Of a stretch of DNA of 64,000 nt, positions 29,717 through 61,516 are shown piece after piece (the stretch's first letter is position 1; each line of letters opens with the position of its first letter). Under the pieces are notes generated by a model, which was not told the DNA's origin, ran no database searches, and was given only the letters and a program-made list of their open reading frames with translations. Source of the stretch: a virus (lineage: Duplodnaviria > Heunggongvirae > Uroviricota > Caudoviricetes); IMG/VR virus record IMGVR_UViG_3300031993_000032; one strand, 5' to 3'. A program made the translations under genes and the position numbers.

Positions 29717-29745
29717 AATATAGTAAATAAAACAAACCGTGTCAA
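29717..29745 (-). promoter_or_regulatory. sigma-70-type promoter TTGACA-N17-TATATT
   Basis: Read directly from the sequence. Confidence 0.6.
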
Positions 29746-29784
29746 CGAATGTCGGCACGGTTTAATTTTATTTTTCCTCACGTA

Positions 29785-29976
29785 TTAGCGGTTGTACCAA
29801 TGGACAAATTTGTAGTCACGGTTGATAATGCCCTCGGTGATTTGCGATGGATAGACACGAAGCGCATCAAGGTCTTCGTGTGTTGTTCTGGAGTTGCTGT
29901 AGTAGCCATACCCATCGTAATCAATGAGGCATCCGCTCTGGCAATCCTCGATAAATTCGTCCAGCTCTAACACCAT
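29785..29976 (-). CDS. hypothetical 63-aa protein
   Basis: ORF 29785..30069 trimmed to the ATG 1 nt after the upstream stop. Confidence 0.4.
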   Translation of the reverse strand: MVLELDEFIEDCQSGCLIDYDGYGYYSNSRTTHEDLDALRVYPSQITEGIINRDYKFVHWYNR

Positions 29977-29977
29977 A

Positions 29978-30265
29978 TTACACGTCTTTATATTCCCATT
30001 TACCATCGATTTCGACAGCTCGTAGGAACTGCAAGTCCATAATAGCACCTTTAGACAGAACGGTATCAAGCGTTGTTTCTATGATTGCGTAATCCCGATG
30101 ATTCTCGGTGTCTTCAAGGTGGTTGATTACCGTCGACTGCGAATCGCCTGTATATCTGTTAACCAGTGCGTTCCACTCGTTGATGGACAGACGGTCGCAC
30201 AAGTACTTACCCTCGATGTAAAGTCTAATTCTCTGGTTTGGTACGGTCACCTTCTGATTAGTCAT
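29978..30265 (-). CDS. hypothetical 95-aa protein
   Basis: ORF 29978..30322 trimmed to Met20 after a CGAGGAG RBS. Confidence 0.5.
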   Translation of the reverse strand: MTNQKVTVPNQRIRLYIEGKYLCDRLSINEWNALVNRYTGDSQSTVINHLEDTENHRDYAIIETTLDTVLSKGAIMDLQFLRAVEIDGKWEYKDV

Positions 30266-30401
30266 TTTGTTTAAACTCCTCGTTATGGAAGGTTTCCCAG
30301 ATGTCCCACCGCTTGCCTCCAAGCATGTCGCACTCCTGGTAAACCAGCTCGACTGGACGTAGGCTCAACAGAAAGTCGATAATGCGATCAACTATCTTCA
30401 C
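30258..30401 (-). CDS. small 47-aa ORF (GTG start)
   Basis: AGAAGG RBS. Translationally coupled to its neighbours. Not in the ORF track. Confidence 0.3.
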   Translation of the reverse strand: MKIVDRIIDFLLSLRPVELVYQECDMLGGKRWDIWETFHNEEFKQND

Positions 30402-30413
30402 GGTAAACCTTCT

Positions 30414-30551
30414 TTACGTTCTGTGTCGAGGTTTCTTTTTCTCAAATACCGCGTCGTAGGCTTCGTCGATAGCCTTTTCCACCTCAAGTGATACATTAAG
30501 GCGGCAGCCCAGCTTTTCAGCGCACGTTCTCAACTTTTGCATCACTGGCAT
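30414..30551 (-). CDS. small 45-aa ORF
   Basis: ATG 4 nt after the stop of the upstream gene. Confidence 0.3.
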   Translation of the reverse strand: MPVMQKLRTCAEKLGCRLNVSLEVEKAIDEAYDAVFEKKKPRHRT

Positions 30552-30555
30552 AGCA

Positions 30556-31653
30556 TCACCGAGTATGTTCAGGGAACTGGTTCAGTACGTAATTGTGCCC
30601 TAACGCACTAGACTCCGCCATTACCTTGCTGAGAAATTCCTTGATAGCCTTCTCGTCCTTCTCGGCGGTATCGTCCATGTGGGTGTCGATACGGTCGCAA
30701 CGCTTGCAGAATTCCTCGTAGCTCCATACCTTAATGATCGGACCGTACTTGCCGATGAATTCTTGCTTTCCGCCGTTGGAGGCGAAGCAAGACTCGCTGA
30801 TATTGGGATTGTACATCGGAGTTACGTAATTGCATTCGTGTCTGTACATGACGTTCAGACCGTTTGCGAATGCGTAACGTACGTACCGCTTGTACAAGGT
30901 CATTCTTGGCATGTCACCAAGGATTCTCGTATAAATGATGAACTCGGTTGGATTCACGGAGATTTTTTCCGGGAACGTGGAGAGTTCGGAACATTCCATG
31001 AAGTTGGACGAAATTACCGGATTCTTTGCCTGGTAATATCCATTGAAATACTGGCCGAACCGTCCCGAGTATGTCTGAATAACGGCACCAGAATGCATCG
31101 ACCCAAGTCCACGCTGGATACAGATATGAATGTTGCTAATCGCACATTCTACTTTGTCACGCAGTTTCTCGACCTTATGACGCCACGGCATCTGACCGTC
31201 CAGCTGTACGAAAATGACTGTATTTAACCAGCCTAGATTTGAAGTCTTGTTACGCAGCGATTCGAAAACAGATGACGGCGAGAATAGCAACTTGTCACCG
31301 ATTTCATTGGAGTCTCCCCAGTTGGAACGTACCGGCTCGTTCAGCTCGTCATAATGCAACGTAGCGGACGAAATCTGTGCGGCGAGAAACAGCTTCTTGT
31401 CATAATCTTCAATGATACATGCCCCGTCAAGCCGTGCAGTGTACTGCGTAGACTCGATGTAGAACCGTTTGTACGGTCGGATACGGAACAAGCGCTTCAC
31501 GCCTCGAATGATATTACGTGCGATCAAATCTTGCTGGATATGCAAGAATTCCTTGGAGTCAACGTCCCACGAATAGAACATCAATTCGTCCAATTCTCTT
31601 GGAGTCTGGTGTGTTGGCGGAGGCGGTGAAGGTAATGCTGATCTTCTGATCAT
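30556..31653 (-). CDS. hypothetical protein (365 aa), possibly enzymatic
   Basis: ORF track. AAGGAAAA RBS. No family recognised. Confidence 0.55.
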   Translation of the reverse strand: MIRRSALPSPPPPTHQTPRELDELMFYSWDVDSKEFLHIQQDLIARNIIRGVKRLFRIRPYKRFYIESTQYTARLDGACIIEDYDKKLFLAAQISSATLHYDELNEPVRSNWGDSNEIGDKLLFSPSSVFESLRNKTSNLGWLNTVIFVQLDGQMPWRHKVEKLRDKVECAISNIHICIQRGLGSMHSGAVIQTYSGRFGQYFNGYYQAKNPVISSNFMECSELSTFPEKISVNPTEFIIYTRILGDMPRMTLYKRYVRYAFANGLNVMYRHECNYVTPMYNPNISESCFASNGGKQEFIGKYGPIIKVWSYEEFCKRCDRIDTHMDDTAEKDEKAIKEFLSKVMAESSALGHNYVLNQFPEHTR

Positions 31654-31664
31654 GATATTTTCCT

Positions 31665-32753
31665 TTATACAAGTTGTGCAGCGAGGTCTCCGAAGGCGTC
31701 AAAGAAACCGTTCGGATAGAATTCGAATTCGCCGTTCTGGTCGATGTTGATTTTCTGGTTACCATACATCATGTAGTAGCCACGGACACCAAGTGTCCGG
31801 ATCTGCAGCTTCACGTCATACAGCGCAGTGATATTCTTGATACAGCCGACATATCGTCCTTGAGGGTCGAACAGATCGACTTGCGGATCGAGGTCGTTGT
31901 GGATGACTATCGGAGAGAACCGATATTCTTCTCGCTTCTTGGGAGTAACTGTATGCTTGCTACGGCGAATGTCATAGATGACCTTCTGGATAGCGATAGG
32001 TGCGGTCGTATATCCATCAAGCAACGTGTGTGACTGTAGATATTCTTGCACCGGCGTAATTGAGTAAGCCAAGCGTTCGTTCATTTCTTCGATAGTCTTG
32101 TCGCTATAGTCGCGTTTCAGACAGTCATGAATCAAGTACCACTCGTCATTGGCATTAGCTCTCCAGAGACAGTCCCTATGGTAGTCCCACAGTGCGTCAT
32201 GGATGTCGCTTCGGATATCTTCCTGGTGTTCTACAAAGCCTACAAAGCAGTCTGAATGCACTTCCGGAAATTCCACGCCGTTTGCGGATCCGGTTCCGTA
32301 CGCAAGACGGTAGTAGACAGTGTCGAATACTCCGTCGGTAATCACTTTCATGATGTCGGAATAAGCCGCATGGAGCATAACACGGAAATAGCACTTGCCA
32401 CCGACATGACGGGTGCATTCAATGTTGTATGCAAAGAAATAAGGCTGGTATTGATCCTTGTCTGTCGGATGGAAATCATGGGAACAGTGGTTTGCCACTG
32501 TAACCTTGATGTCCTTGCATTTCCAGTGTTTCAGCTCGGCGATGATTCTCGGCATGAGCTTCTTGTACGGCTTGACATGCGTATTGACGAGTCGCCATAC
32601 TTCAGCCAGTGCGGGGCCTTCTATACGGGCACCTTGAGCAAGTTCAGTAGCCTTAGCTTCTACTTCGTCAAGTAGTTCCGTCTTGATGCATTCCGGTCGC
32701 TCTGAGGCGATCTGACGCAACTGTCGGAAAAGGTGGGCTACGGTCGTATTCAT
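31665..32753 (-). CDS. hypothetical protein (362 aa) sharing a C-terminal domain of about 90 aa with the 33246..34124 product
   Basis: ORF 31665..32900 (TTG) trimmed to Met50. ATGA overlap with the upstream gene. The paralogous C-terminal stretch is GYY.M..Q.I.ID..G..E.YP..FFD. Confidence 0.5.
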   Translation of the reverse strand: MNTTVAHLFRQLRQIASERPECIKTELLDEVEAKATELAQGARIEGPALAEVWRLVNTHVKPYKKLMPRIIAELKHWKCKDIKVTVANHCSHDFHPTDKDQYQPYFFAYNIECTRHVGGKCYFRVMLHAAYSDIMKVITDGVFDTVYYRLAYGTGSANGVEFPEVHSDCFVGFVEHQEDIRSDIHDALWDYHRDCLWRANANDEWYLIHDCLKRDYSDKTIEEMNERLAYSITPVQEYLQSHTLLDGYTTAPIAIQKVIYDIRRSKHTVTPKKREEYRFSPIVIHNDLDPQVDLFDPQGRYVGCIKNITALYDVKLQIRTLGVRGYYMMYGNQKINIDQNGEFEFYPNGFFDAFGDLAAQLV

Positions 32754-33268
32754 TTGTGCATTTCCTTGTCGGCGTAGTCCTTGAGGGCTTCGTTCTGAAC
32801 GTTCCTCAATCGGCGAGTGATTGAACTCACAGCGCTCTCGATCATGGAGCTCGCCTTCCTTGCGGTAATCACCTTGGCACGCATGATGTCGCCAACGCAA
32901 TGATTATCCATGTCCTTCTTGCTTGTGAAGCGGATTGTTTGAACGGTATCGTTATAATCATCGCCTTTCTTGGCATGACCCATATAGACGAGTCGAGAGA
33001 ACTGCAGAAAGTACCTATTATTGCCGTCCCATTTTTTTGCACCGACGACTTTTCCGAGACGGAAATAGTTATCTCCGTCGATTTCGTCGCAAGGATCCCA
33101 GCCAGGGATAACGACCCACTTGTCCATGATACGGCGGAGCTTTCCGTTGATGTCGGCCAGCATCACTCGGTCACGGATTTTATTTTGTTCGTCATACAAC
33201 TTGTCGATGGTCGTCTCGATTTCTTCGAGCCTATTCAAATCTTCTTCATGCGTTGTATTCGTCATCAT
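32750..33268 (-). CDS. hypothetical protein (172 aa)
   Basis: ORF track. AGAGG RBS. Confidence 0.55.
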   Translation of the reverse strand: MMTNTTHEEDLNRLEEIETTIDKLYDEQNKIRDRVMLADINGKLRRIMDKWVVIPGWDPCDEIDGDNYFRLGKVVGAKKWDGNNRYFLQFSRLVYMGHAKKGDDYNDTVQTIRFTSKKDMDNHCVGDIMRAKVITARKASSMIESAVSSITRRLRNVQNEALKDYADKEMHK

Positions 33269-34124
33269 TTACCTCTGGGTTGATTGGTTGCGGATAGATT
33301 TCTGCGAGTTTCGATTGGAATAGTGACTGGACTTCGGTATCGGTGGACAGCAAGTCGCCAGCTGCAGTGATAACGGTATCAAAGAAATTTATCGGATATT
33401 CTTCGATATTTCCGTAGCGGTCGATATCGATGCGCTGCCCGTCGAACATGAAGTAGTAGCCAGCCAAACGCTGCAGACCGATCTGCCTACGGACATCCTC
33501 GAATGCCGTGTCGTTCTTGACTTCGCCTACCTTGAATCCGTCCGGATTGTACAAGGTTGTTGGCTTGTCGAGGTCATTACGCACAATGACCTTCATCCTT
33601 GCCGGATTGATGAACTTGATACGGTCAAGGTCGATCTCGTGCTCTACGGTGTCGTCGATCAGTACGTTAAACTTGTTGGTATCGTCGACACCCCACTTCC
33701 ATACAGTAGGCTTGTTCAGCCCATACGAACCGAATCCGCCTGGTTGCAGCAACGTATCTCGGTCGAACGCAAAATCAGAACACTGGCCGATCAACGTGTC
33801 GACCGCATCTTCCTTGACGAAGATAGTGCCACGGTGCTCCTTGTCGACCCCAATCCTCTTGTACAAGTTATCTACAAGCCCAAGCTCGATTTCGGAACGG
33901 TGTACCCATCCCCAAGTATAGATATTCACCTTGTAATGGTGTCCGTCGTGCTTGTGGATATATTCCTTGATATTATCACATTGGTGGTTCAGAAAATTCG
34001 CATTGAACAAGTCGTCAATAAGCGTTCCCTCGATATCTACATAGATCTCGATATCGGCTTCCTTCTTGCGTTTCATTGGAGTCGTATTGATTACTGGTTC
34101 TTCGTGATGTACAGGATAAGTCAT
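33246..34124 (-). CDS. hypothetical protein with a weak HAD-like N-terminal motif (VDIEGTL) and the C-terminal domain shared with 31665..32753
   Basis: ORF trimmed to Met26, which sits 6 nt after the TATATT of promoter 34131-34159. Confidence 0.5.
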   Translation of the reverse strand: MTYPVHHEEPVINTTPMKRKKEADIEIYVDIEGTLIDDLFNANFLNHQCDNIKEYIHKHDGHHYKVNIYTWGWVHRSEIELGLVDNLYKRIGVDKEHRGTIFVKEDAVDTLIGQCSDFAFDRDTLLQPGGFGSYGLNKPTVWKWGVDDTNKFNVLIDDTVEHEIDLDRIKFINPARMKVIVRNDLDKPTTLYNPDGFKVGEVKNDTAFEDVRRQIGLQRLAGYYFMFDGQRIDIDRYGNIEEYPINFFDTVITAAGDLLSTDTEVQSLFQSKLAEIYPQPINPEVNDDEYNA

Positions 34125-34130
34125 GTACAA

Positions 34131-34159
34131 AATATAGTAAATACTCTGATGAGTGTCAA
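34131..34159 (-). promoter_or_regulatory. sigma-70-type promoter TTGACA-N17-TATATT with the ATG 6 nt downstream (leaderless)
   Basis: Read directly from the sequence. Confidence 0.6.
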
Positions 34160-34222
34160 CGCAGAAAGGCCAGCCTTGCGGCTGGCCTTGTTGTATCAAC
34201 AGAGGTAAATTTTAACGAACTA

Positions 34223-35848
34223 TTATTCCCAAGGGAGCTTGCGGTCAGACTTCGGCTGAGCCTTCTTGACGTTGTTTACAACGGTCTTGAGCTGTTCAGC
34301 GGTCATCTTGGGTGCAGCCTTCGGTTCTTCGGCCTTGGGAGCTTCGGCAGCCTTCGGTGCTTCGTTCACGACAGTACACTGGCACGGTTCTGCCTTGTTG
34401 GAACCTACTCCAGCAAGCTTGGCACCGAACATGGAGCTGAGCACGTTCGGAAGATTGATGCCAAGGGATTCGGTGAGACCGTTGGACATCTTGGTAAGAG
34501 TGCTGATAAGGTTGCCAGTGAGATTTTCTGGGCCGTGTTCGCCATACATGACGAGGCTTCCGATCTTTTCCCACGGCTTGGCGAGAGATTCTGCCATGTG
34601 CGGCAACTGTTCGAAGTACTTTTCGAGAGCCTTGAGCTGCATTTCTTGACGAGCAGCTTCGCCGTACTTCTGCATTGCTTCTGCCTTCTGGTCGAGGGCA
34701 GCGGCTTCTGCAAGACCCTTTGCCTTGATGGCATCAGCCTCAGCTTCACCACGAGCACGGATAGCTTCAGCGTCGTTGAATGCACGAGTCTTTTCGGCTT
34801 CGGAAATCTGCTTGATGGCTTCTGCTTCTTGAGTCTTTGCGAAGAGCTTTGCTTCGGCATCCTTGTTCTGGCGGTAGAGGTCAGCTTCAGAGTTCTGGAT
34901 CTGGGCTTGACGGTTAGCTTCGGCCTTCTTCTGGATTTCAGCTTCGAGTTCTTTCTGCTTCACAGTGACCATGCGTTCACGGATTTCGGCTTCCTTTTCT
35001 TGGCGAGCGCATTCCGCTTCTGCAGCCTTGATATTAATGGTCTTCTGCTGTTCTTGCTTCTGGATTTCGTATGCGGCGTCTGCTTCGGCCTTTTTGGTGT
35101 CGGCTTGACGCTTAAGGTCAGCCTTCTTCACTTCGAGGTCATTCTGCTTCTGGGCGATTTCGAGGTCAGCAGCGACCTTAGCATCGTTGGCTTCCTTTGC
35201 AGCCTTGGATTCGGCGATGCTAATATCACGGTCGGAATTAGCTTTAGAGATCGCCGCAGCCTTACGAATAGCGGATGTCTTGTCTACACCGAGGTCTTTG
35301 ATGACGCCCTTGTCGTCAACAAAGTTCTGGATGTTGAAAGTCTGGATTTCCAAGCCGAGTTTCTTGAGGTCTGGGTCAGCATTTTCACGAACGAGATCAG
35401 ACACACCCTTACGGTCATTGACAAGCTTGACGAGTTCCATCTGGCCGACAATTTCACGCATGTTGCCTTCCAGGATGTCCTTGATGTTGCTTGCAATGTT
35501 TTCTGTAGAGTTATTCAAGAAGTTCTGGGCAGATGCTTCCAAAAGTTTTTCATCATCAGACACCTTCACTGTCACGACGGCATCGACGTCAACGTTGATG
35601 TAGTCGCTTGTCGGAATTGCCTTGGTCTTCACGTCGATGGGGAAGAGCTTCAAGCTAAGCTTGTCGGCTCGTTCCAAGAACGGAATCTTGAATCCGGCAT
35701 GGCCGATGACGGTGCGGCGCTTGCGGAAACCGGAAATGATGATGACTTCGTCGGGTGCGGCCTTGATATAGGACACGCAGAAGAGGATAATGAGGAAGAG
35801 CACGACGACTGCAATTCCACCATAGAGCAGAATACTGGAAAGATCCAT
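34223..35848 (-). CDS. flotillin-like SPFH/band-7 protein (N-terminal TM, SPFH domain, long EA/KA-rich coiled-coil)
   Basis: Domain architecture recognised by eye. AAGGAAA RBS. Confidence 0.75.
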   Translation of the reverse strand: MDLSSILLYGGIAVVVLFLIILFCVSYIKAAPDEVIIISGFRKRRTVIGHAGFKIPFLERADKLSLKLFPIDVKTKAIPTSDYINVDVDAVVTVKVSDDEKLLEASAQNFLNNSTENIASNIKDILEGNMREIVGQMELVKLVNDRKGVSDLVRENADPDLKKLGLEIQTFNIQNFVDDKGVIKDLGVDKTSAIRKAAAISKANSDRDISIAESKAAKEANDAKVAADLEIAQKQNDLEVKKADLKRQADTKKAEADAAYEIQKQEQQKTINIKAAEAECARQEKEAEIRERMVTVKQKELEAEIQKKAEANRQAQIQNSEADLYRQNKDAEAKLFAKTQEAEAIKQISEAEKTRAFNDAEAIRARGEAEADAIKAKGLAEAAALDQKAEAMQKYGEAARQEMQLKALEKYFEQLPHMAESLAKPWEKIGSLVMYGEHGPENLTGNLISTLTKMSNGLTESLGINLPNVLSSMFGAKLAGVGSNKAEPCQCTVVNEAPKAAEAPKAEEPKAAPKMTAEQLKTVVNNVKKAQPKSDRKLPWE

Positions 35849-38922: not shown

Positions 38923-38951
38923 AATATAGTAATAACACTCATATCCGTCAA
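38923..38951 (-). promoter_or_regulatory. sigma-70-type promoter TTGACG-N17-TATATT with the ATG 7 nt downstream
   Basis: Read directly from the sequence. Confidence 0.6.
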
Positions 38952-40573: not shown

Positions 40574-40742
40574 TGTTCCTCTTTAATATCTCACGCAATT
40601 TATGCGGCCACTGACTGATTGTTTTTTCAATCCGTTTGAGCCTTCTTTCGTTTCTAATATAGCAAATGATCTTAAATATGGCAAATCCATACACCGATAC
40701 AATAGCCAAAATCACCAGAATTAATAGAATGTTCCACACCAT
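40548..40742 (-). CDS. small 64-aa TM protein
   Basis: ORF track. ATG 7 nt after a TATATT -10 (40750-40755). Overlaps the second promoter 40656-40684. Confidence 0.35.
   Translation of the reverse strand: MVWNILLILVILAIVSVYGFAIFKIICYIRNERRLKRIEKTISQWPHKLREILKRNNDDRGNLQ
40656..40684 (-). promoter_or_regulatory. sigma-70-type promoter TTGCCA-N17-TATATT upstream of the HD gene
   Basis: Read directly from the sequence. Confidence 0.5.
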
Positions 40743-40868
40743 GGCGCGAAATATAGTAAAGATTTATAACAAACTAACTTATATTTTGTTTATTTTTGCC
40801 ACGGGTTGCCAAACATACACTCATTTGCTATATTACATGGAAACTTAATCTTTAACAAGGACTATTCA

Positions 40869-42215
40869 ATGGCAGTCAAAGTCTCCGAAAAAACGATTGC
40901 GAGGGCAAAGCAGCCTTGTCGCACCGTTTGCAAGCGTCGTGCTGTCGGCGTAACGGCAAACAAGCAGTATCAGCGCAAGAACAAAGACCAGTGGTTCGTC
41001 ACGCATCTCACCAAGACCGATACTTACAAGTTCGGCATGTGTCAAGCGGTCTTCCACAAGCATCCGAACGAACGTGCCTACTGGGAATTCAAGCTCCGTT
41101 CTGATGGCGTCGACCTGACTCCGTACTACGACGAAATCAACAAGGAACTCGATCACCTTTGCACACTCAAGTTTACTGAATGGGAACTCGAAGGCATTCG
41201 CCGTGTTATGCCTTGGCTGTCCGACGACTTCATCGAATGGCTTGCCGACTTCCAGCTCAAGCGCAAGTACATCCACGTCGACTATGATGCTACTCGCAAC
41301 GGCGGTCTCCACATCTGGGCTGAAGGCCCCGCAATCCAAGTTACCTGGTTTGAAATCTATGTTCTGAAGATTATCCAGAACCTCTTCTTCGACGATCTCG
41401 AAATCGACTGGGAAGAATCCAAGAAGACACTCAACGAATCTATCGCAAAGTGGAACGCAGCTCTCCGCCGTGGCGTCAAGTTCACGATCTCTGACTTCGG
41501 TGTCCGCCGTTCCGTGTCCGACGAATGGAACGAATACATGGTTCAGACCATGATCGACTTCTGCCCCGCTTTTGTGGGCACTTCCAACGTGTACCTTGCC
41601 ATCAAGCTAGGCTGCAAGGCTATTGGTACTTTTGCCCATGAAATGTACGCACTGTATCAAGGCATTGACGACATTCCGCTTCACCTTGTGCAGAAGAAAG
41701 TTCTCGAAGACTGGTCTGACGAATTCCGTGGCGACCTCGGTATTGCGCTTTCCGACAACTTTGGCTTCAATGCATTCTTGCGTGATTTCGATAAGTATTA
41801 CGCCAAGCTGTTCGACGGTTGCCGTCACGACTCTGGCGACCCGTATGTCTGGGGCGAAATGCTTATCGCTCACTACACCAAGAACGGCATCAATTCCAAG
41901 AGCAAGGTAGGCTGCTGGTCTGACAGCCTCAACTGCGACCAGTCCATCGCTATCGCCGAACGCTTCCACACTCGTATCAACGTGGCATTCGGTATCGGCG
42001 GCTTCCTCGCTTGCAAGGTGCTCCGCTTCAAGGGTGGCATCAAGCGTGACGCTCTCCGCATGATCATGAAGCTTGTCATGTCCAACGGCAAGTACGCCGT
42101 GAAGCTCTCCGACTCTCCGGGCAAGGTCAACTGTCCTGACCCGAAGGTGATTGAACGTGCGAAGGACGCATACCATTACGAACCAATTGCAGAAAACAAG
42201 GACGCTTTGGATTAA
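40869..42215 (+). CDS. pncB: nicotinate phosphoribosyltransferase
   Basis: Collinear matches to PncB: DTYKFGMCQAVFH, FGVRRSVS...FVGTSNVYLA, GIALSDNFGFNAFLRDF, CRHDSGDPYVWGE, VKLSDSPGKVNCPD. Trimmed to Met22 after AAGGA. Confidence 0.85.
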   Translation: MAVKVSEKTIARAKQPCRTVCKRRAVGVTANKQYQRKNKDQWFVTHLTKTDTYKFGMCQAVFHKHPNERAYWEFKLRSDGVDLTPYYDEINKELDHLCTLKFTEWELEGIRRVMPWLSDDFIEWLADFQLKRKYIHVDYDATRNGGLHIWAEGPAIQVTWFEIYVLKIIQNLFFDDLEIDWEESKKTLNESIAKWNAALRRGVKFTISDFGVRRSVSDEWNEYMVQTMIDFCPAFVGTSNVYLAIKLGCKAIGTFAHEMYALYQGIDDIPLHLVQKKVLEDWSDEFRGDLGIALSDNFGFNAFLRDFDKYYAKLFDGCRHDSGDPYVWGEMLIAHYTKNGINSKSKVGCWSDSLNCDQSIAIAERFHTRINVAFGIGGFLACKVLRFKGGIKRDALRMIMKLVMSNGKYAVKLSDSPGKVNCPDPKVIERAKDAYHYEPIAENKDALD

Positions 42216-42217
42216 AG

Positions 42218-42862
42218 ATGAAAGTACTCGAACTATTTGCTGGCGAACGTTGCATTGGCAAGGCATTTGAACGTGCTGGCCATGAGGTATATTCAGTAGA
42301 CTGGGACAAAATCCATCCAAATATCGACTGGTATACAGATATTTCTAAAGTGACTGCTCAAGATATCCTTGAACGGTTTGGGCATCCGGACGTTATTTGG
42401 ATGAGTCCGGATTGCACAACGTATTCAGTCGCCGCAATTTCTTATCATCGAACCAATGTAAATGGCGAATTGCAGCCAAAAACTGAATATGCAAAATTTT
42501 GTGATGCACTTAATGTGCATTGTAATGAACTGATTAAAGAGTTAAGTCCATCGTTATGGTTTAGGGAAAATCCACGAGGTGGCATGCGCAAAATGTCATT
42601 TGTTGCTGGATTGCCTAGATATACCGTAACATACTGTCAATACGGCGATACGAGGCAAAAGCCAACAGACATTTGGACCAACCATCCGAATCCTAATTTT
42701 TTGCCACCATGTAAACCGGGTTCACCTTGCCATGAAGCGGCCCCTCGTGGCAGCCGTACCGGTACTCAAGGACGTGCTGGCCATGTTATGCGGTCATTAA
42801 TTCCAGATAATCTATGCGATCATATCGTCAAAATTTGTGAAGAATATATGGGTGTCAAATGA
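42218..42862 (+). CDS. minimal C5-cytosine-methyltransferase-like protein (214 aa; motifs I LELFAG, IV SPDC, VI FRENP; no obvious TRD)
   Basis: Motif order read by eye. Sits between pncB and nadD. Confidence 0.4.
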   Translation: MKVLELFAGERCIGKAFERAGHEVYSVDWDKIHPNIDWYTDISKVTAQDILERFGHPDVIWMSPDCTTYSVAAISYHRTNVNGELQPKTEYAKFCDALNVHCNELIKELSPSLWFRENPRGGMRKMSFVAGLPRYTVTYCQYGDTRQKPTDIWTNHPNPNFLPPCKPGSPCHEAAPRGSRTGTQGRAGHVMRSLIPDNLCDHIVKICEEYMGVK

Positions 42863-43284
42863 AGAAGGTGTACATCTACGGCGGAGCATTCGACCCGGTA
42901 ACGACTGCGCACACCGCCATTATTACCGAACTGCTCAGCCGACTCAAGAAGGAACCTGATTCCCTCTTGTACATCTTGGTTAGTGACAACGATACGAAGA
43001 ATTACAAGGTCGAATGCGAAGACCGCATGGCGATGATCGTCCATACGGTCAATTCGCTCCACAGCTTGTATTCTGACACGTCCGATTCTCCGGCTGCATA
43101 CAATCAAGGCGAACCGTCCGAAATCTTCCACCGTGTGAAGATTGTCGACGAAGTGAGCCGTACAGCTGAAGCCCTGCAGAATCTCCGCAAGGATACCAGC
43201 TTGACTGATGCTACATTCACGCTGGTTCTCGGCACTGACGAATGGCAGTCGCTGTTGACCAAACAATGGGCTGTTAACAGCTAA
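42859..43284 (+). CDS. nadD: NadD-like nicotinate/nicotinamide mononucleotide adenylyltransferase, short (141 aa; lacks the C-terminal third of canonical NadD)
   Basis: GGAFDPVTTAH nucleotidyltransferase motif. LVLGTDEWQSL block. ATGA overlap with the upstream gene. Confidence 0.55.
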   Translation: MKKVYIYGGAFDPVTTAHTAIITELLSRLKKEPDSLLYILVSDNDTKNYKVECEDRMAMIVHTVNSLHSLYSDTSDSPAAYNQGEPSEIFHRVKIVDEVSRTAEALQNLRKDTSLTDATFTLVLGTDEWQSLLTKQWAVNS

Positions 43285-47246: not shown

Positions 47247-47280
47247 ACGATCTCGCTTTTGGTCATATGCAGTTTATACG

Positions 47281-48456: not shown

Positions 48457-48507
48457 GCAGTTAATATAGCAAAAAGAACTATAAACGGCTATAAAAGGAG
48501 GTTCGAC

Positions 48508-50359: not shown

Positions 50360-50570
50360 ACTTGACAATATAGCAATTAAGAGTAAAATTGTCTACGATA
50401 AAAGCGAAATCCATCGCATTTGCGATGGATTGTCCTTTATGCTTGATTTTCCGTGAGTATTTCTTCTTGTCAAGAACCAGCCGAGTGCGAAGTGTCGCAC
50501 CGTTGCCAGTCCCGGCAATCCTTGCGGCCCGTTGGGTTCTCGTTTCCTTGATGTGTTCTATATTGCTCAT
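50277..50570 (-). CDS. small basic protein (97 aa) whose reading frame runs through the thg1 promoter and the first 90 nt of thg1
   Basis: ORF track. Promoter TTGACA-N16-TATATT at 50580-50607 with the ATG 9 nt downstream. Confidence 0.4.
   Translation of the reverse strand: MSNIEHIKETRTQRAARIAGTGNGATLRTRLVLDKKKYSRKIKHKGQSIANAMDFAFIVDNFTLNCYIVKYGKNTIRYYEAWRPYQGIRTPVYRTQN
50367..50395 (-). promoter_or_regulatory. sigma-70-type promoter TAGACA-N17-TATATT, leaderless
   Basis: Read directly from the sequence. Confidence 0.55.
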
Positions 50571-50609
50571 AATGTACCAAATATAGGAATTTAACTCTAT
50601 GTGTCAAGA

Positions 50610-53129: not shown

Positions 53130-53226
53130 AGTATACCTTGTTTACTATATGCGCAGTTTATCATTTCATAACGGCATCGCATTTAAAAATTATATAAACT
53201 TAAGGTCAAATCGATGGAGCAATCCA

Positions 53227-56117: not shown

Positions 56118-56124
56118 TTATATC

Positions 56125-57591
56125 CTGCCTCATAAAATGTATATAAAGGTATAGATGACCTAAATATAGCAATTTACGGTTGCGTTAGCAACTTGGTTCC
56201 ATAGACGATTAAAGAAATCGTCCACCATAGCCATCCTACCATCTCTGGTAAGTAGGCGATGAGCATCAACCTCGGTAGTTTCACCAGTTCCCGAAAGGGA
56301 AGAGGCCAGAGCTACCAAGTCCGCTGGTGTGAATTTCCGACGGGCAATGTCGGTATTAAAACGATTATTTAGTTCAATGAACAAGGCTTCGGCAAGGATA
56401 TTGATGGCGGCATTGGTATCCCTATCGATAACCAGACCACATTTCTCGCAGACATACTCTCGTTCGGACAATGAAAGTTTTTCTTTCACATGCCCACAAC
56501 CGGAACATTTCTTTGACGACGGGAAGAACCGTCCGACTTTTAAGAGCAATGTTCCGTACTTGGCACTCTTGTATTCTAGGAACCTACGAATCATGCCGAA
56601 TCCGCAGTCAGAAATGACCGACGCCAACTTGTGGTTGGTCATCATTCCCTTTACATTCAAGTCCTCTATGGCGACAACCATGTTATGCTTAACGATTTCT
56701 GTCGTCGCCTTGTGTATCAAGTCCTTTCTGAAGTTCTTGATATAGGTATTCGTCTTATTAAACGTCTTCTTGATATCCTTGTAATGTACTGAATTGTACT
56801 TCCGGCGGGACATCATCCTCTGATATCTCTTTAGTCGCTTATAATGCCTCTTGTTGATATGCTCGTTAGCGACACATTCGCCGGTAGACAGCTGCATCAG
56901 CGTCTTAACGCCCATATCTATGCCGACAAGACCGTTAACATCTGTTCCGTACAAACGTTGGGTGTCATCGTAAGTATAGGATATCGAGATGTACCAACGG
57001 TCGTTGCTTCCTTTGGATATAACGAAGTTGTTTATCTTACCGGATAGGCATTCGTACCGTACTGGCTCCGCCAGTCTGACTGGAAGCTTGATTAACGGCA
57101 ACTTGATATGAATAGGATCGACAATCCTAGCATGGTCGTTCTCTATGTAGAACGAACGCTTAGACTTGTATTTCTTTCGCTTGGGAAAGCCGAACAGATC
57201 TGGATTCTCGTAATGCCGTTTCTTGGCTAGAACGAAGTTCTTGATGGCTTGATTCATAGAGCCTTTGGGACTCTCGTACATCCAGTCAGTCTTTTGTTCG
57301 TTGAATTCCTTGCGGAGTTCCGCACACGTCACCGATTTCTGGCCAGCAGCTTTCTTGGCAAACCAGGTATCCCTAGCCCAGTTATATGCGTAGCGAGCAC
57401 AACCGCATGCTCGGTTCAATGCGCTTGCTGTCTTGCTATCGACTATCAACATTATTTTCTGGGCTGTACTTATCATACACACAAGAAATGCCCCGGTAAC
57501 GCCTATTGTGGTATTTAACGTTACCGGAGCACCGAAAACTCTTCAATTAGAACAAGAAATACCACTAACTTATTCTATAACGAAGTTTATA
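56125..57591 (-). mobile_element. IS200/IS605-family tnpB-only element, copy 3 (inverted relative to copy 1, about 10 percent diverged)
   Basis: Ends mapped by aligning this copy to 24357-25837. Compensatory left-end hairpin GCTCCGGTAACG/CGTTACCGGGGC versus GCCCTGAAGAC/GTCTTCGGGGC. Confidence 0.65.
56160..57476 (-). CDS. tnpB: TnpB (OrfB_IS605), 438 aa
   Basis: About 90 percent identical to the 24474..25790 product. Trimmed to the ATG matching the copy-1 start. Confidence 0.85.
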   Translation of the reverse strand: MISTAQKIMLIVDSKTASALNRACGCARYAYNWARDTWFAKKAAGQKSVTCAELRKEFNEQKTDWMYESPKGSMNQAIKNFVLAKKRHYENPDLFGFPKRKKYKSKRSFYIENDHARIVDPIHIKLPLIKLPVRLAEPVRYECLSGKINNFVISKGSNDRWYISISYTYDDTQRLYGTDVNGLVGIDMGVKTLMQLSTGECVANEHINKRHYKRLKRYQRMMSRRKYNSVHYKDIKKTFNKTNTYIKNFRKDLIHKATTEIVKHNMVVAIEDLNVKGMMTNHKLASVISDCGFGMIRRFLEYKSAKYGTLLLKVGRFFPSSKKCSGCGHVKEKLSLSEREYVCEKCGLVIDRDTNAAINILAEALFIELNNRFNTDIARRKFTPADLVALASSLSGTGETTEVDAHRLLTRDGRMAMVDDFFNRLWNQVANATVNCYI

Positions 57592-57672
57592 GCATTCGCA
57601 TCTTGAATTCATGCGGTGTTCATGAAAAGGCTGTTATTTTTTATTTACAATTCAATACATTCATATATTGTT

Positions 57673-58155
57673 TCAGCTACTAGATACAATCTCCAAATTG
57701 CTAAGTTCGTTCTCGATACGCTTTCCATCAAATATACATTCATCACGATTTTCACGCAAGGCAAGTTCCTTCGCCAGCGTACGGATATTCACCATCTGCG
57801 CCTTCATGTCGAACAAGTCCGGAACCTTCTTATTATATGCGTTTTCGTAATCGGTGCACAGCTTGCCCATAAGGGGCCCGTAGATACATTCGATTGACCG
57901 CGTGTACTGCCGGTGAAGCTCGTCGATCTTCTTCTCGAATGCACGCAGCTGGGCAGCAATCTTGATATAGCCAACAACAGAATTTTCATCCATTGTGTAG
58001 TGAACTCTTGGAAGATCAATTTTCACATCGGACTGAATCTCGTTGTCCGGCGTATCGTCGTTATCAAACTTCATGTCAAGCGAAATCGACAACGGCGTAA
58101 TCTTCTTCCGCTTTGCAGCACGGATCAGCTGCAGCAAGTCATTGTCATTTCTCAT
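57673..58155 (-). CDS. hypothetical protein (160 aa)
   Basis: ORF track. AAAGGAAG RBS. ATGA coupling to the sigma gene. Confidence 0.55.
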   Translation of the reverse strand: MRNDNDLLQLIRAAKRKKITPLSISLDMKFDNDDTPDNEIQSDVKIDLPRVHYTMDENSVVGYIKIAAQLRAFEKKIDELHRQYTRSIECIYGPLMGKLCTDYENAYNKKVPDLFDMKAQMVNIRTLAKELALRENRDECIFDGKRIENELSNLEIVSSS

Positions 58156-58892
58156 ACAGCTTCCTTTCGCAGATATTTAGCCTCTGCGACCATATTTTCG
58201 TATTGAGGGCTCTTGCGGATGCGGTTTAATGCTGCGTTACGAATCTGGCGAACTCGTTCGTGGGAGACATTCATGTCAGAACCAACGCTACGCAATGTTA
58301 CCGAATCGTCGCCATATACGAACAGACGGTTAAGCACTTCACGCTCATTGTCGCTGACCATCGACAAGAAACGTTCAGTCAACTTAGCATTCTCGTCATT
58401 TGCGGTTCCTTCTTCGGTATCTTCTCCGCTACGCAGCAGATCGCCGATGGAACGCTTTCCATCCAGCTTCATGTCAGTGGACAGCATCGCTACCGAAGCC
58501 TTGGTCGTGTCCTTGGATTTCAAGATATTTTCCGGTCGATGAATCAGAAGGCTTGCGAATGACGCCTTCTTCATTTCATTCAGTGCCTTTGCGGAGAAGT
58601 ATGTATAAAATGCCGTGCCACGGCTCGGATCGAATTCCTTGACTGCCTTGGGCAATCCGAACACTGCGGAATTCACCAATTCGTCAATCGTCAGGTTGTA
58701 TGCACTCGTAGACAGCTGTTTTGCCATCTTGTACAAGAACGGAATGTACTTGTAGATCAGCCGGGTGGTGGCAGCACGGTCACCTTCCTTGGCACGTTGG
58801 ATGTAGATCATTTCCACATCACGGTTTGGTATAGCTTGAATTGAACGACGATATTCGTCTCTGAACCTGTTACGAAGAACGGTTGATGTCAT
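58152..58892 (-). CDS. phage-encoded sigma-70-family RNA polymerase sigma factor (regions 2 and 4 present)
   Basis: Region 2: RLIYKYIPFLYKMAK...NSAVFGLPKAVKEFDPSRGTAFYTYFSAKALNEM. Region 4.2: SHERVRQIRNAALNRIRK. AACAGGA RBS. Confidence 0.8.
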   Translation of the reverse strand: MTSTVLRNRFRDEYRRSIQAIPNRDVEMIYIQRAKEGDRAATTRLIYKYIPFLYKMAKQLSTSAYNLTIDELVNSAVFGLPKAVKEFDPSRGTAFYTYFSAKALNEMKKASFASLLIHRPENILKSKDTTKASVAMLSTDMKLDGKRSIGDLLRSGEDTEEGTANDENAKLTERFLSMVSDNEREVLNRLFVYGDDSVTLRSVGSDMNVSHERVRQIRNAALNRIRKSPQYENMVAEAKYLRKEAV

Positions 58893-58917
58893 GTGTGTCC
58901 TGTTTATGGTGTGTTGG

Positions 58918-59193
58918 TTAATAAGAAAACGTATGTTCCCGATAGCTGGCGGTGTGCTTTTTCTTCGCTCGGATACGGTCGATCAAGATCGATGCGGCGC
59001 ATGCAACCGAGTCGTCCGCTTCCTTTGGTTCGGCTGTCAGCATCAGCTGCGCTTGCAAGTTCTGCAATGCATGGAAGACGGCCTCGTCGATGGTCTCGTC
59101 ATTATTCTCATAATACTTGCCCAAGTCCAGCTCTGCGTAAACCGTGTCGCCGTCCTTTACCGTCAATTTTTCTTCCGAGTGAGTAATAACCAT
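58918..59193 (-). CDS. hypothetical protein adjacent to the sigma gene (anti-sigma or modulator candidate)
   Basis: ORF track. TAATG coupling. Confidence 0.5.
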   Translation of the reverse strand: MVITHSEEKLTVKDGDTVYAELDLGKYYENNDETIDEAVFHALQNLQAQLMLTAEPKEADDSVACAASILIDRIRAKKKHTASYREHTFSY

Positions 59194-59456
59194 TAGAACA
59201 TCGCCTTGTAGAATTCCGGATCGCTGAGTGAACTCTGTACATTGCCTTCAATACGACCAGTCAGAACAACCTTGTTCATCATGTCGTCGACGTACTTGGT
59301 TTCTTCTGCGGACAGATGGATAACGTCGCACTTGTATGCGACAAACATCACCAGCAGCTTGTCATTAGGGTACTCGGCAACGATTCCGATATTCGTAGCT
59401 ACGCCAAGCAGCTCCTCGGTAAACCGTTCCCAGATGTCATCAACCATTCCGTACAT
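59193..59456 (-). CDS. hypothetical protein (87 aa)
   Basis: ORF 59193..59504 trimmed to Met17 after an AAGGAAG RBS. Confidence 0.45.
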   Translation of the reverse strand: MYGMVDDIWERFTEELLGVATNIGIVAEYPNDKLLVMFVAYKCDVIHLSAEETKYVDDMMNKVVLTGRIEGNVQSSLSDPEFYKAMF

Positions 59457-59727
59457 TCGCTTCTTCCTTAGGATCGAGATTAGTATATTCGATGTCGGTA
59501 ACATATCCCGGTGACGAGATTCCGAACTTGTCCGGATCCAGCCAGAGATGCCATACCGATATTTTCAAGTGTTCGTTCCGTGTATGCAGCCGGTATATTA
59601 CCTTGTTCATCTTGTGAGTGCGGTCTCGCTGTCCACGACTCGGAACAAATCCTTTCGATATTAAGAACTTGTTTAGTAAGCTGAACGGCTTGTCCATGAA
59701 CATCATAACGGATTCTCGATTCGTCAT
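59440..59727 (-). CDS. hypothetical basic protein
   Basis: ORF track. AGAGGGA RBS. ATGA coupling. Confidence 0.5.
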   Translation of the reverse strand: MTNRESVMMFMDKPFSLLNKFLISKGFVPSRGQRDRTHKMNKVIYRLHTRNEHLKISVWHLWLDPDKFGISSPGYVTDIEYTNLDPKEEANVRNG

Positions 59728-59960
59728 AGTCCCTCTACTAGTAGGTATTGTTTGAGTGCTTTAAGAGTGTCGACGGCAGCCTTCTTCTCGTACTGCAGCG
59801 CATCGGTGACCTGAGCCTCCACGATTGTCTCGTAGTTCTCGTAGCCATCGTCAAGAGCAACCCGTTCGTCCCTCAAGTGGAGCGCACGACCGTCTTGTAT
59901 GCTTTTCGTAAGAATTTCGACTTGATTATCTATGGTTTTAATTAGACTTTCGTCAGACAT
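59724..59960 (-). CDS. hypothetical acidic protein, first gene of the sigma operon
   Basis: ATG 6 nt after the TATATT of promoter 59967-59995. The TTG start given by the ORF track is discarded. Confidence 0.5.
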   Translation of the reverse strand: MSDESLIKTIDNQVEILTKSIQDGRALHLRDERVALDDGYENYETIVEAQVTDALQYEKKAAVDTLKALKQYLLVEGL

Positions 59961-59966
59961 ATTCAA

Positions 59967-59995
59967 AATATAGCAATTAATTTACTTGTTTGTAA
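59967..59995 (-). promoter_or_regulatory. sigma-70-type promoter TTACAA-N17-TATATT, leaderless, driving the sigma-factor operon
   Basis: Read directly from the sequence. Confidence 0.55.
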
Positions 59996-60075
59996 CAGGT
60001 TTATTAAATTTTACATGCAAAAAGACGGCGGTCTTTCGACCACCGTCCCAGGACACAAACCAACAAAAAACTCGA

Positions 60076-60231
60076 TTATTCTTCTGGTTCCATTTCGACA
60101 CCAAACTTTTGTTCAGCGGATGCACGCTTGGCAGTAACAAGGCGCACGATGGTAAGTCCGATGGACAGAATACCGACAATCGCCAAGGCGATCACAGACT
60201 TTTCTTTAATATCGATAAGTTTTTCTTTCAT
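60076..60231 (-). CDS. small TM peptide (51 aa)
   Basis: ORF trimmed to Met20 after an AGAGGAA RBS. Promoter TTGCCA-N17-TATATT at 60250-60278. Terminator at 60030-60060. Confidence 0.45.
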   Translation of the reverse strand: MKEKLIDIKEKSVIALAIVGILSIGLTIVRLVTAKRASAEQKFGVEMEPEE

Positions 60232-60290
60232 GATGAATTCCTCTATGTTTGATATTGAGAATATAGCAATATATCCACCGCTTGGCAAGA

Positions 60291-60530
60291 CTATTTTTTC
60301 TCGTCTTCCAAGGCTGCCTTCATGAACTCTTCCGCAGTAGCGTCAAGGGCTGGATTCCTCAATGTCATTACAATGTCCTCGACCACACGTCCAATAATAG
60401 CCTCCATCTGCGTAGCCAAGAACACTTCTACTGGGTCGTTACTGTTATTCGCAATAATTCCCATACGATTCAAGGTGGCATTAACTTCATCAAATACAAT
60501 AGATTTCCTAAGTTCTTCTTTCTGAGCCAT
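60291..60530 (-). CDS. hypothetical protein
   Basis: ORF track. Confidence 0.45.
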   Translation of the reverse strand: MAQKEELRKSIVFDEVNATLNRMGIIANNSNDPVEVFLATQMEAIIGRVVEDIVMTLRNPALDATAEEFMKAALEDEKK

Positions 60531-60535
60531 AATTA

Positions 60536-60862
60536 CTACTTGCTCCTGTCATTCCAGCCAACCACGATCTTGCCAGTATCCCCTTCACGAGTGGCAAATG
60601 CGTTGTGATTGTGCATGGCCGACATAATCAGTTCATCATTATCCGTATACGACTGGATAATTTCAAGTGCGGAAAACTTGTCCATCAAGGTAAGCTCGGT
60701 ATCCATCGGAATATCAACCGTCTCGAACTTCCTTATACGGATAGATCCGTCCGGATGATATTCCGTATACGTGGCGGTGGACATGTCGAATTCATCTCGC
60801 CATGTGCTGGACACGCACATCTGGTACAGCATGTTGTCGACGGTAAATTTCGGCTTATCCAT
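60536..60862 (-). CDS. hypothetical protein
   Basis: ORF track. TAATG coupling. Confidence 0.5.
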   Translation of the reverse strand: MDKPKFTVDNMLYQMCVSSTWRDEFDMSTATYTEYHPDGSIRIRKFETVDIPMDTELTLMDKFSALEIIQSYTDNDELIMSAMHNHNAFATREGDTGKIVVGWNDRSK

Positions 60863-61200
60863 TATCCAACCATCGCCTTGTAAAGTTCAAACATCGCCAC
60901 CACGGTTCCGTCATCTGATTCGAATCTCACGAAATCGTCGTGACTAGTCAGTACAGCCCCAGTTACTTCTTTGTACTGGTCGGACATTCTGGAGACTGCG
61001 GCTTTCTTCGTCGGATGGTAAGTCGTAATGGACTTTACGACGGTCTGTCCGTCCTCTATCGTCCTAACTTTCGATTCAAGAACATACGTAGCCTTGCAAG
61101 CCTTGACGTGCGCCATTGTCTGGGCAATCTTATCTACAGACTTGCTGGCTTCCGCTAATTCTCGCTTGACTGAATCTTTATTTTTTGACATCGCTAACAT
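60862..61200 (-). CDS. hypothetical protein (start may be Met4 at 61191)
   Basis: ORF track. Confidence 0.45.
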   Translation of the reverse strand: MLAMSKNKDSVKRELAEASKSVDKIAQTMAHVKACKATYVLESKVRTIEDGQTVVKSITTYHPTKKAAVSRMSDQYKEVTGAVLTSHDDFVRFESDDGTVVAMFELYKAMVG

Positions 61201-61480
61201 CCGTTGGTTTAGGTGAAATCAGACCAATATCGGTCAACCACTTGACGTAATTGCCTTGGAACGGGGTCAATTCGCCGTCCTTCATAGCCTTTCTTACACA
61301 TTGACACAAAGTACACAACGATCGTTCAAGTTCAATTCCCCTGGCAAAATCCGGATCATAGTTCAATCCGTCCTCGACCGATGCCTTGGCGTCCATTGCG
61401 TCCTCAAAGGTAGCTGACATGATGGCACGCATGAGACCATGCATCGTAATCGAGTCTAATCTGTCTAATGGCATACTCAT
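61178..61480 (-). CDS. hypothetical protein
   Basis: ATG 7 nt after the TATATT of promoter 61488-61516 (TTGCCG-N17-TATATT). Confidence 0.5.
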   Translation of the reverse strand: MSMPLDRLDSITMHGLMRAIMSATFEDAMDAKASVEDGLNYDPDFARGIELERSLCTLCQCVRKAMKDGELTPFQGNYVKWLTDIGLISPKPTDVSDVKK

Positions 61481-61487
61481 GGCTCAA

Positions 61488-61516
61488 AATATAGTAAACA
61501 ATGCTTTAAACGGCAA
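61488..61516 (-). promoter_or_regulatory. sigma-70-type promoter TTGCCG-N17-TATATT, leaderless
   Basis: Read directly from the sequence. Confidence 0.55.

Follow-up and report, generated by a model that had tools for sequence, protein, structure and literature searches.

How do the messenger RNAs of a very large phage begin where a promoter appears to lie directly against a start codon? The question is raised by a 64,000-nucleotide (nt) stretch of viral DNA (Caudoviricetes; IMG/VR record IMGVR_UViG_3300031993_000032), referred to here as the window. In it, nine genes carry the hexamer TATATT, the putative -10 element of a sigma-70-type promoter, only 6–9 nt before their ATG. We estimate at roughly 80% the probability that these nine first cistrons are transcribed from sigma-70-type promoters as messengers that are leaderless or nearly so.

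Placement of the nine putative promoters

The initial annotation of the window had listed nine near-consensus sigma-70 promoters, each lacking a Shine-Dalgarno (SD) sequence and each with an ATG where the first transcribed base is expected. All nine were found on reading the sequence, and each was read individually: TATATT, usually preceded by T-T-[A/G]-C to give (T)T[A/G]CTATATT, is followed 6–9 nt on by an ATG that opens a reading frame of 64–418 residues. The sites are on the minus strand, except for the one at 23845, and all nine genes come after an intergenic or terminator-containing region. The gap between hexamer and start codon is 6 nt at 34131, 59967 and 48463, 7 nt at 38923, 40750, 50367 and 61488, and 9 nt at 50580 and 23845; no gap contains a GGAG-type motif or has room for an SD sequence. 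The start codon is ATG in 9/9 genes, with a pyrimidine at -1 and an A at +1 in 8/9.

The -10 element matches TATAAT in five of six positions at all nine sites, and the spacer between the hexamers is always 16–18 nt long. The -35 hexamers share 6, 5, 2, 5, 6, 4, 4, 3 and 3 of six bases with TTGACA (in the order in which the sites are described below, from 34131 to 23845), i.e. 4–6 at six sites. The term near-consensus thus fits the -10 elements and the spacing, and the -35 elements only in part. An extended -10 element (TGn) is present at 4/9 sites, including 48463 and 23845, where the -35 is weak; the weak -35 site at 40750 does not have it. Hexamers 17 ± 1 nt apart or a TGn element, as expected of sigma-70 promoters, were found. 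The exact sequence TTGACA-N16-18-TATATT is combined with the leaderless layout only at 34131 and 50580.

The promoter at 34131–34159 (minus strand, like the next seven), TTGACA-N17-(tac)TATATT, is separated by 6 nt from the ATG (34124–34122) of a 292-residue gene at the head of an operon that extends to about 29978. Just upstream of 34159 is a terminator-like hairpin; the earlier label of the gene as HAD-like found no support in Pfam. At 38923–38951, TTGACG-N17-(tac)TATATT precedes by 7 nt the ATG (38915–38913) of the 418-residue CCA-adding enzyme. This gene, cca, is the first cistron of an operon in the order cca, LemA, a 263-residue protein, a 136-residue protein and flotillin, in which all four downstream cistrons have AAGGA or GAGG; a terminator (39184–39158) lies upstream of the promoter. 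At 40750–40778, (tac)TATATT with a poor -35 (GTTAGT) is placed 7 nt from the ATG (40742–40740) of a hydrophobic, membrane-like open reading frame (ORF) of 64 residues, overlapping an HD-domain gene. The promoter at 50367–50395, TAGACA-N17-(tgc)TATATT, has a terminator-like hairpin (50431–50408) directly upstream and lies 7 nt from the ATG (50359–50357) of a Thg1-like protein of 296 residues.

At 50580–50607, TTGACA-N16-(tcc)TATATT is followed after 9 nt by the ATG (50570–50568) of a small basic protein, of 97 residues in the window and 82 in related phages. The sequence GTTACA-N18-(tgc)TATATT at 59967–59996 is located 6 nt before the ATG (59960–59958) of a 78-residue gene, which heads the operon that includes a sigma-70-family gene (58892–58152), and TTGCCG-N17-(tac)TATATT at 61488–61516 is located 7 nt before the ATG (61480–61478) of a 100-residue gene. 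At 48463–48491, an extended -10, (tgc)TATATT, with the weak -35 TAGCCG precedes by 6 nt the ATG (48456–48454) of UDP-galactopyranose mutase (GLF, 391 residues), in a 51-nt divergent region common to glf and an amidase gene. Finally, at 23845–23873 on the plus strand, (tgc)TATATT, again extended and with a weak -35 (TTGCTG), lies 9 nt before the ATG (23883–23885) of a 141-residue gene.

The site at 23845 is the least supported member of the nine. The approximately 75 nt upstream of it repeat the region before 23257, so that the segment (cccatgtcccgattttgaaaaattttgcctgggg...tatatagggaaat) is found upstream of two adjacent genes, at 23100–23190 and 23770–23873 on the plus strand. The two genes behind it are weak paralogs at best (35% over 31 residues), and in the second copy a 17-nt insertion creates the -35/-10 spacing of the putative leaderless promoter.

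Predicted transcription and translation starts

Primary-sigma holoenzymes normally start transcription 7–8 nt past the last base of the -10 element and prefer a purine after a pyrimidine. A gap of 6–7 nt puts the A of the ATG at the seventh or eighth base, so that seven sites predict a 5′-terminal AUG, in line with the annotation. At the two 9-nt sites, for which the annotation had made the same claim, an A is present at the seventh base, and transcription is predicted to start 2–3 nt upstream of the ATG, with 3-nt leaders (AUUAUG, ACAAUG). Transcripts with 3-nt leaders still class as leaderless in transcriptome studies.

We propose that the operons outside the region of the intergenic cassettes described below would be read from sigma-70-type promoters with a TTGACA-like -35, a spacer of 17 ± 1 nt and a -10 of the form (T)T[A/G]CTATATT. 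At seven sites RNA polymerase would start at the A of the ATG, the seventh or eighth base past the -10, from which would follow a messenger without a 5′ untranslated region (UTR) and without an SD sequence. On the first cistron, ribosome and initiator tRNA would bind the 5′-terminal AUG directly (70S-type initiation), with ordinary AAGGA(G) sites serving the later cistrons of the same transcripts. Leaderless initiation at a 5′-terminal AUG is an established mode of translation. Compared with SD-led genes, the nine genes have slightly less structure in their first 45 nt (-2.9 vs -4.7 kcal/mol, one-sided P = 0.036).

Enrichment over chance

Of the 60 TATATT hexamers in the window, 9 have an ATG 6–9 nt downstream that starts an ORF of 60 residues or more, with 1.09 expected (binomial P = 1.4e-6). 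For CTATATT the count is 9/23 (0.42 expected, binomial P = 1.4e-10) and for T[AG]CTATATT 8/15 (0.27 expected, binomial P = 7e-11). Fourteen other hexamers of the same composition have 0–4 such ATGs, the value of 4 belonging to ATATTT, which overlaps TATATT. The exact arrangement TTGACA-N16-18-TATATT is present seven times in the window vs 0.07 expected; among these matches, those at 5594, 8554, 10895 and 14198 are cassette promoters, and the one at 29717 has a 36-nt leader. When an independent consensus scan was performed, its top matches were again these sites with the leaderless layout.

Measured between TATATT and the nearest genuine gene start behind it, the distances form two peaks, at 6–9 nt and at 27–37 nt, as predicted if some promoters are leaderless and others have normal leaders. 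In the part of the window from 23 to 64 kb, 48 likely starts of genes were surveyed, and no further start adjacent to a TANNNT sequence was found.

Conservation in related phages

Phylogenetic footprints provide the strongest evidence that these sequences are likely to act as promoters. Scans of IMG/VR with single cca or single sigma protein queries gave no match, after which relatives were found with a cca alignment as the query. They are present on viral contigs of 130–425 kb; by this comparison the window comes from the genome of a huge, uncultured phage of the approximately 350-kb class. Related loci are designated by L numbers. The closest relative retrieved, L121 (IMGVR_UViG_3300037512_000782), has 348 kb, with cca 70% and Thg1 79% identical, and L004 is a close syntenic relative.

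At cca, eight loci with protein identities of 43–81% and GC contents of 29–50% keep the -35, N17, TATATT, N7 and ATG without any indel. In their alignment TT-AC of the -35, TATATT and the ATG are invariant and the spacers have diverged; the -35 in the related loci is TTGACA or TTTACA, 17 nt before TATATT, which is followed by 7 nt to the ATG. For the 100-residue gene, six loci were found via the neighbouring sigma gene (54–94% identity), and in these TTG, TTTnCTATATT and C-ATG are invariant, with a 7-nt gap and no indels. Orthologs of the 292-residue gene in L004 and L006 keep the -35, the -10 and the ATG, with a gap of 7 nt; in L003 this ATG lies within an operon and has no promoter. TATATT-N7-ATG is kept, together with the hydrophobic amino-terminus, for the 64-residue ORF in L004 and L006, and for glf in L006 and L121. 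The Thg1 spacing is identical in L004 and L121, and the arrangement of the 97-residue ORF is kept in at least one other phage. Orthologs of the 78-residue gene are present in L105, L110 and L109, with gaps of 6, 7 and 9 nt, respectively, and a conserved amino-terminus. In total, 8/9 genes keep the layout in at least one other phage, the exception being the gene at 23845. The view of the initial annotation that the first cistrons are leaderless is strongly supported by this comparison, with the starts themselves predicted.

Other huge-phage lineages (L007, L008, L011, L014 and L015) have a leader with GAGG or AAGGA in front of this cca ATG. Judging from the alignments, the start codon of cca is constant across lineages and only the way of reaching it changes. 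TATATT-N6-8-ATG is present at several genes per 20 kb in the clade of the window (L003–L006, L105–L110 and L121), and also in a second clade of about 50% GC (L033, L034) and in AT-rich clades (L009, L010/L012, L013, L016). None was found in the surveyed 20 kb of L007, L008, L014, L015 and L035, and the leaderless layout is patchy across phage lineages. In the AT-rich L010, L012, L013 and L016, the region upstream of cca (about 9960–10000) has its TTTACA -35 in the loop of a GC hairpin, which is followed by a T-run leading into the -10 (e.g. cagggTTTACAaataaccctgtcttttTTATATT), an arrangement that resembles a terminator fused to a promoter.

The region behind the 50580 promoter is 92% identical to L004 and contains a hairpin (fold z = -3.6). 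A non-coding RNA as the product of this promoter was considered and rejected because of codon-like substitutions: compared with L004 and L121, 10 synonymous and 8 non-synonymous codons differ in the 97-residue ORF, including a change of CGG to AGA. Rfam gave no match there. A 10-bp hairpin with a T-run (50408–50431, minus strand) is located inside this conserved 97/82-residue ORF and adjoins the Thg1 promoter. Equivalents are present in L121 and in L004, the latter with a compensatory A-T to G-C change, and the hairpin may mediate attenuation between the small gene and Thg1. The ORF also has a CGGGACTG motif, located in the loop of a predicted hairpin. L121 (2715–2790) has two tandem copies of the promoter before its small basic-protein gene, of which the first (TTGACA...CTATATT-N9-ATG) opens an ORF of six codons only.

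Use of the annotated start codons

The proteins are conserved from codons 1–4 onwards, and the nucleotide changes there are largely synonymous. The 100-residue gene keeps the peptide M-x-x-PLDRLD through synonymous codon changes, PLDRLD being encoded as CCA TTA GAC AGA TTA GAC, CCA CTT GAT AGA CTT GAT, CCT TTA GAC CGT TTA GAC or CCG CTA GAC CGA TTG GAC. The initial methionine does not vary among 30 database gene calls of cca, and gene callers pick the same Thg1 ATG (50359).

This conservation bears on the possibility that transcription starts as predicted and translation begins at a downstream codon, leaving the annotated ATGs untranslated. Short ORFs (64–100 residues) are hard to verify, and some of the genes do have in-frame ATGs further on. 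Against this, the amino acids are conserved from the first codons, and the downstream in-frame ATGs are not conserved and have no convincing SD sequence. A check of seven genes out of the nine for in-frame downstream starts preceded by an SD sequence found none in five; three weak SD-like matches in the other two, the 64- and 100-residue ORFs, were judged spurious. In GLF the Rossmann motif begins at residue 12, in Thg1 the domain begins at about residue 13 (residue 16 in a query of 299 residues), and SD-led orthologs use the same ATG. Downstream initiation is scarcely credible in view of this. Indirectly, the comparisons indicate that the annotated ATGs are the codons actually used.

Leadered promoters of the same class

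About fourteen promoters of the T[A/G]CTATATT class are present outside the cassette region, TGn being found in about half of them; nine have the leaderless layout. The others precede leadered genes. The first coordinate given by the annotation, 29717–29745 (minus strand, TTGACA-N17-tacTATATT), belongs to the same promoter family and is not leaderless: a 36-nt 5′ UTR with AAGGA leads to the ATG at 29680. Three copies of TTGCCA-N17-tgcTATATT are located at 40806–40834 on the plus strand (34 nt with AAGGA, ATG 40869 of a nicotinate phosphoribosyltransferase-like gene), at 60260–60288 on the minus strand (28 nt with GAGG, ATG 60231) and at 40656–40684 on the minus strand, the last inside the 64-residue ORF and 82 nt from the ATG (40573) of the HD-domain gene, which has an SD sequence. 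A further promoter of this class at 23185 (plus strand) has a leader of 66 nt with no SD match. The four exact TTGACA-N17-TATATT matches of the cassette region are leadered as well. A trade-off between -35 strength and TGn was considered, and the means (4.1 vs 4.8 of 6) are too weak to claim one.

The annotation had proposed two initiation modes that separate by promoter class. In the window, leaderless starts are indeed confined to the non-cassette class, and none was found in about 43 kb of cassette-rich DNA of the 348-kb relative. The separation is incomplete, because this same class also drives the leadered genes behind 29717, 40806–40834 (plus strand), 60260, 40656 and 23185 (plus strand). 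Many internal genes have AAGGA, GAGG or AGGAG, and several others have no SD match in our scan.

These leadered copies also bear on a different interpretation, in which TATATT would be an AU-rich, non-SD translation enhancer within longer, leadered transcripts (S1-dependent or Bacteroidota-like). AU-rich sequence just upstream of start codons can boost translation, and many gut jumbo phages with NAD-synthesis genes are predicted to infect Bacteroidota, which are non-SD users (PMC11662467). The same box, however, is located 28–82 nt upstream of SD-led genes and therefore cannot be a ribosome-binding site there. A conserved -35 exactly 17 nt upstream of the box, the terminator-like hairpins before several sites and the strong AAGGAG of internal genes also argue against an enhancer. 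The Bacteroidota -7 motif TAnnTTTG was matched, by eye, at a minority of sites, and TATATTTG was read, likewise by eye, at only some sites. Promoters and non-SD initiation of the Bacteroidota type (-7 TAnnTTTG, -33 TTTG) were rejected, the -35 being TTGACA or TTTACA at 17 nt and AAGGAG being common. An enhancer is thus very improbable, and leaderless transcription from sigma-70-type promoters remains the preferred explanation.

Near-identical TTGCTA-N17-TATATT sequences are found at the 3′ ends of two TnpB genes, at 25759–25787 (plus strand) and 56163–56191 (minus strand). They point outward and face the next genes (GTG 25846 and ATG 56117, respectively), and could be outward-reading promoters or part of the guide-RNA region of the element.

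Identity of the sigma factor and points against the interpretation

Several points weigh against leaderless expression from host-type promoters at all nine sites. Three members have poor -35 hexamers (2–3/6). In the two 9-nt cases the ATG is at the tenth base past the -10, and a leader of 2–3 nt is more likely. No orthologs of the gene at 23845 were retrieved, and the 3′ part of the 97-residue ORF is uncertain, since this ORF crosses a hairpin as well as the Thg1 promoter. The phages phiKZ and AR9, discussed below, show no leaderless transcripts, and this mode can therefore not be assumed from phage size. Lastly, the strictness of TATATT (never TATAAT), together with the C at -13, could reflect a phage-specific sigma factor rather than the primary sigma factor of the host.

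If so, the promoters would be real and the mRNAs still leaderless, with CTATATT as the -10 element of the sigma factor encoded at 58892–58152 or of another phage factor. Diverged phages, even those with 29% GC, keep TATATT and the C or T before it unchanged, and the sigma-70-family gene has regions 2 and 4 and is conserved in the relatives (54–94% identity). On the other hand, TTGACA, the 17-nt spacer and the optional TGn form a classic primary-sigma architecture, and the operon of the sigma gene is itself headed by such a promoter (59967), so that at least this promoter would have to be read by a pre-existing holoenzyme. We consider recognition by a phage factor unlikely.

The cassette class and other motifs

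The cassettes number 34 and are located between 800 and 22660 on the minus strand (e.g. 1566, 9614, 13895 and 21107), in intergenic positions before nearly every small gene. Their rigid layout is RCTGR, 11 nt, CGGGACTG(CC), 11 nt, TATT, 5 nt, TAYRYAA, an AAGGAG-type SD and the ATG. RCTGR begins 16 nt before CGGGACTG in 34/34 copies, TATT is found at +11 in 27/34 and TAYRYAA at +20 in 28/34. The statement in the annotation that all cassette-driven genes carry CCAAGGAG was too strong, for the exact sequence is present in 17/34; AAGGAG is present in 27 and some GGAG-type SD in 32. A hairpin flanking the GGGACTGCC loop is found in only about half of the cassettes, with 59% of cells paired in a fixed register. 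Elsewhere, the cassette is present almost only in the 348-kb IMG/VR relative, L121, which carries the same repeats. A phage-specific promoter is the probable role of the cassette; its -10-like element would be nnTATT, and its upstream GACTG boxes are spaced by about two helical turns, which suggests an activator or a phage sigma factor.

Four cassette variants (5594–5646, 8554–8606, 10895–10947 and 14198–14240, minus strand) have TTGACA directly before CGGGACTG and TTATATT in place of TATT, making them perfect sigma-70 consensus promoters. They are flanked by the inverted repeat AATATAAC...GTTATATT and come after a GC-rich terminator-like hairpin (AAAAGGGGCnnnGCCCCT).

One cassette, at 7085, has no SD and precedes a tRNA-like gene (6929–7054, minus strand) rather than a protein gene. 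This gene matches the Rfam tRNA family with 37.9 bits (E = 7.8e-7 in a 231-nt search, 2.2e-4 window-wide) and was not detected by ARAGORN; its D-loop region has an insertion of 48 nt, and its anticodon region is enlarged. Its 5′ end is located 9 nt past the CATT box of the cassette, which suggests a cassette promoter starting transcription about 7–9 nt past the box and an RNA with almost no 5′ leader.

The motif (T/G)ATAAACT(G/C)C is present at 47269–47278 and 53153–53162 (minus strand), at 61533–61542 (plus strand) and at about 3630 in L004, 15–25 nt before the ATGs of genes of 429, 839 and 676 residues, without a family match, and of a 376-residue gene in L004. The motif may represent a third type of promoter, with too few copies to judge. 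The sequence TATAAACTGC, before 47246, 53129 and 61567, was considered as a third motif, and its copies are too few to call it one.

The phage and its gene content

The GC content of the window is about 48%, and that of the relatives goes down to 29%. In comparisons with isolated phages, megablast with 23 kb of the window found no match, and tblastn with cca found distant matches only (less than 60% identity). A scan of species-representative genomes with cca found no match; the same scan with TnpB gave matches of at most 39% identity spread over many phyla, from which no host can be inferred.

Apart from the CCA-adding enzyme, the Thg1-like protein and UDP-galactopyranose mutase, the window encodes a NAPRTase-like protein, a flotillin/SPFH operon, the sigma-70-family protein, an anti-restriction protein homolog, three TnpB-type (IS605 OrfB / Cas12f-like) transposon genes and many ORFs without a family match. 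In L004, amidase_2, NMNAT/Nudix and isochorismatase genes are found at positions corresponding to the window; the window ORFs at these positions gave no family match where they were scanned.

Comparison with known systems

The arrangement resembles that described as group C by GeneMarkS-2, in which a Pribnow box is located 6–8 nt away from where the first genes of operons begin and other genes have a ribosome-binding site (PMC6028130). This pattern is found in Actinobacteria and Deinococcus-Thermus, in 25–50% of operons (PMC6028130, PMC4007540, PMC3898074, PMC12340547), and in Deinococcus the -10 motif adjoining ORFs has been shown experimentally to be the promoter of leaderless genes, with a spacing requirement (PMC12340547). 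As in Deinococcus, Mycobacterium and other Actinobacteria, the -10 element in the window lies just before the first gene, which has no SD, and internal genes have ribosome-binding sites. Unlike in these bacteria, the elements belong to a huge phage, the hexamer is fixed as TATATT (theirs is a loose TANNNT), the -35 is good and all starts are ATG.

In phage lambda, the A of the AUG is the first base of the cI mRNA from the sigma-70 promoter PRM, and this mRNA is translated with no SD sequence, as are similar single leaderless transcripts of phage regulators (reviewed in PMC9031893). The phage mRNAs predicted here would likewise start at the AUG from a sigma-70 promoter with no SD. Whereas those are isolated regulatory genes, about nine operon heads in 40 kb have this layout here, conserved across a phage clade, and they include tRNA-repair, sugar-metabolism and sigma-factor operons.

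Of the jumbo phages examined by experiment, phiKZ showed no leaderless transcripts, and the 5′ UTRs of AR9 are 26–491 nt long (PMC8244752, PMC5312081). These phages share with ours a very large genome and many dedicated promoters; theirs are AT-rich and read by their own multisubunit polymerases, in contrast to the sigma-70-type promoters of the window. In its NAD-salvage genes, this huge phage of gut or rumen type resembles the gastrointestinal "NAD-jumbo phages", which have NAPRTase, NMN adenylyltransferase/Nudix and PncA-like isochorismatase genes, as found in 40869–43284 and in L004; the words promoter, leaderless, Shine-Dalgarno and sigma factor are not present in that paper (PMC11662467). 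Full-text searches of one literature collection found no paper on leaderless expression in jumbo, huge or mega phages. The mechanism is known, as are single leaderless phage mRNAs such as lambda cI; what is new is its conserved use at multiple operons in a huge-phage lineage, together with natural pairs of leaderless and SD-led orthologs. It is possible, if doubtful, that a clade of huge gut and rumen phages (GC 29–50%) has fixed a lineage-specific CTATATT promoter, perhaps read by a phage sigma factor, directly on the start codon.

For this poorly annotated lineage, the results provide correct gene starts and operon heads. They also call for caution, because start prediction based on SD sequences in phage metagenomes can mis-call leaderless genes; for Thg1 and glf, a program-made list of ORFs puts the starts further upstream, at TTG and GTG codons. 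The natural pairs, in which the same gene has the same ATG in a leaderless and in an SD-led lineage, are suited to tests of what leaderless expression costs or gains. If a clade has indeed fixed such a promoter, key tRNA-repair, sigma-factor and cell-envelope operons of these phages would be translated without SD/anti-SD pairing, and their expression could persist regardless of host initiation rules or during ribosome remodelling, with a second, cassette-type class with strong SD leaders serving the remaining genome. The switch of orthologs from leaderless to SD-led expression, or back, at one ATG would then show an evolvable regulatory choice.

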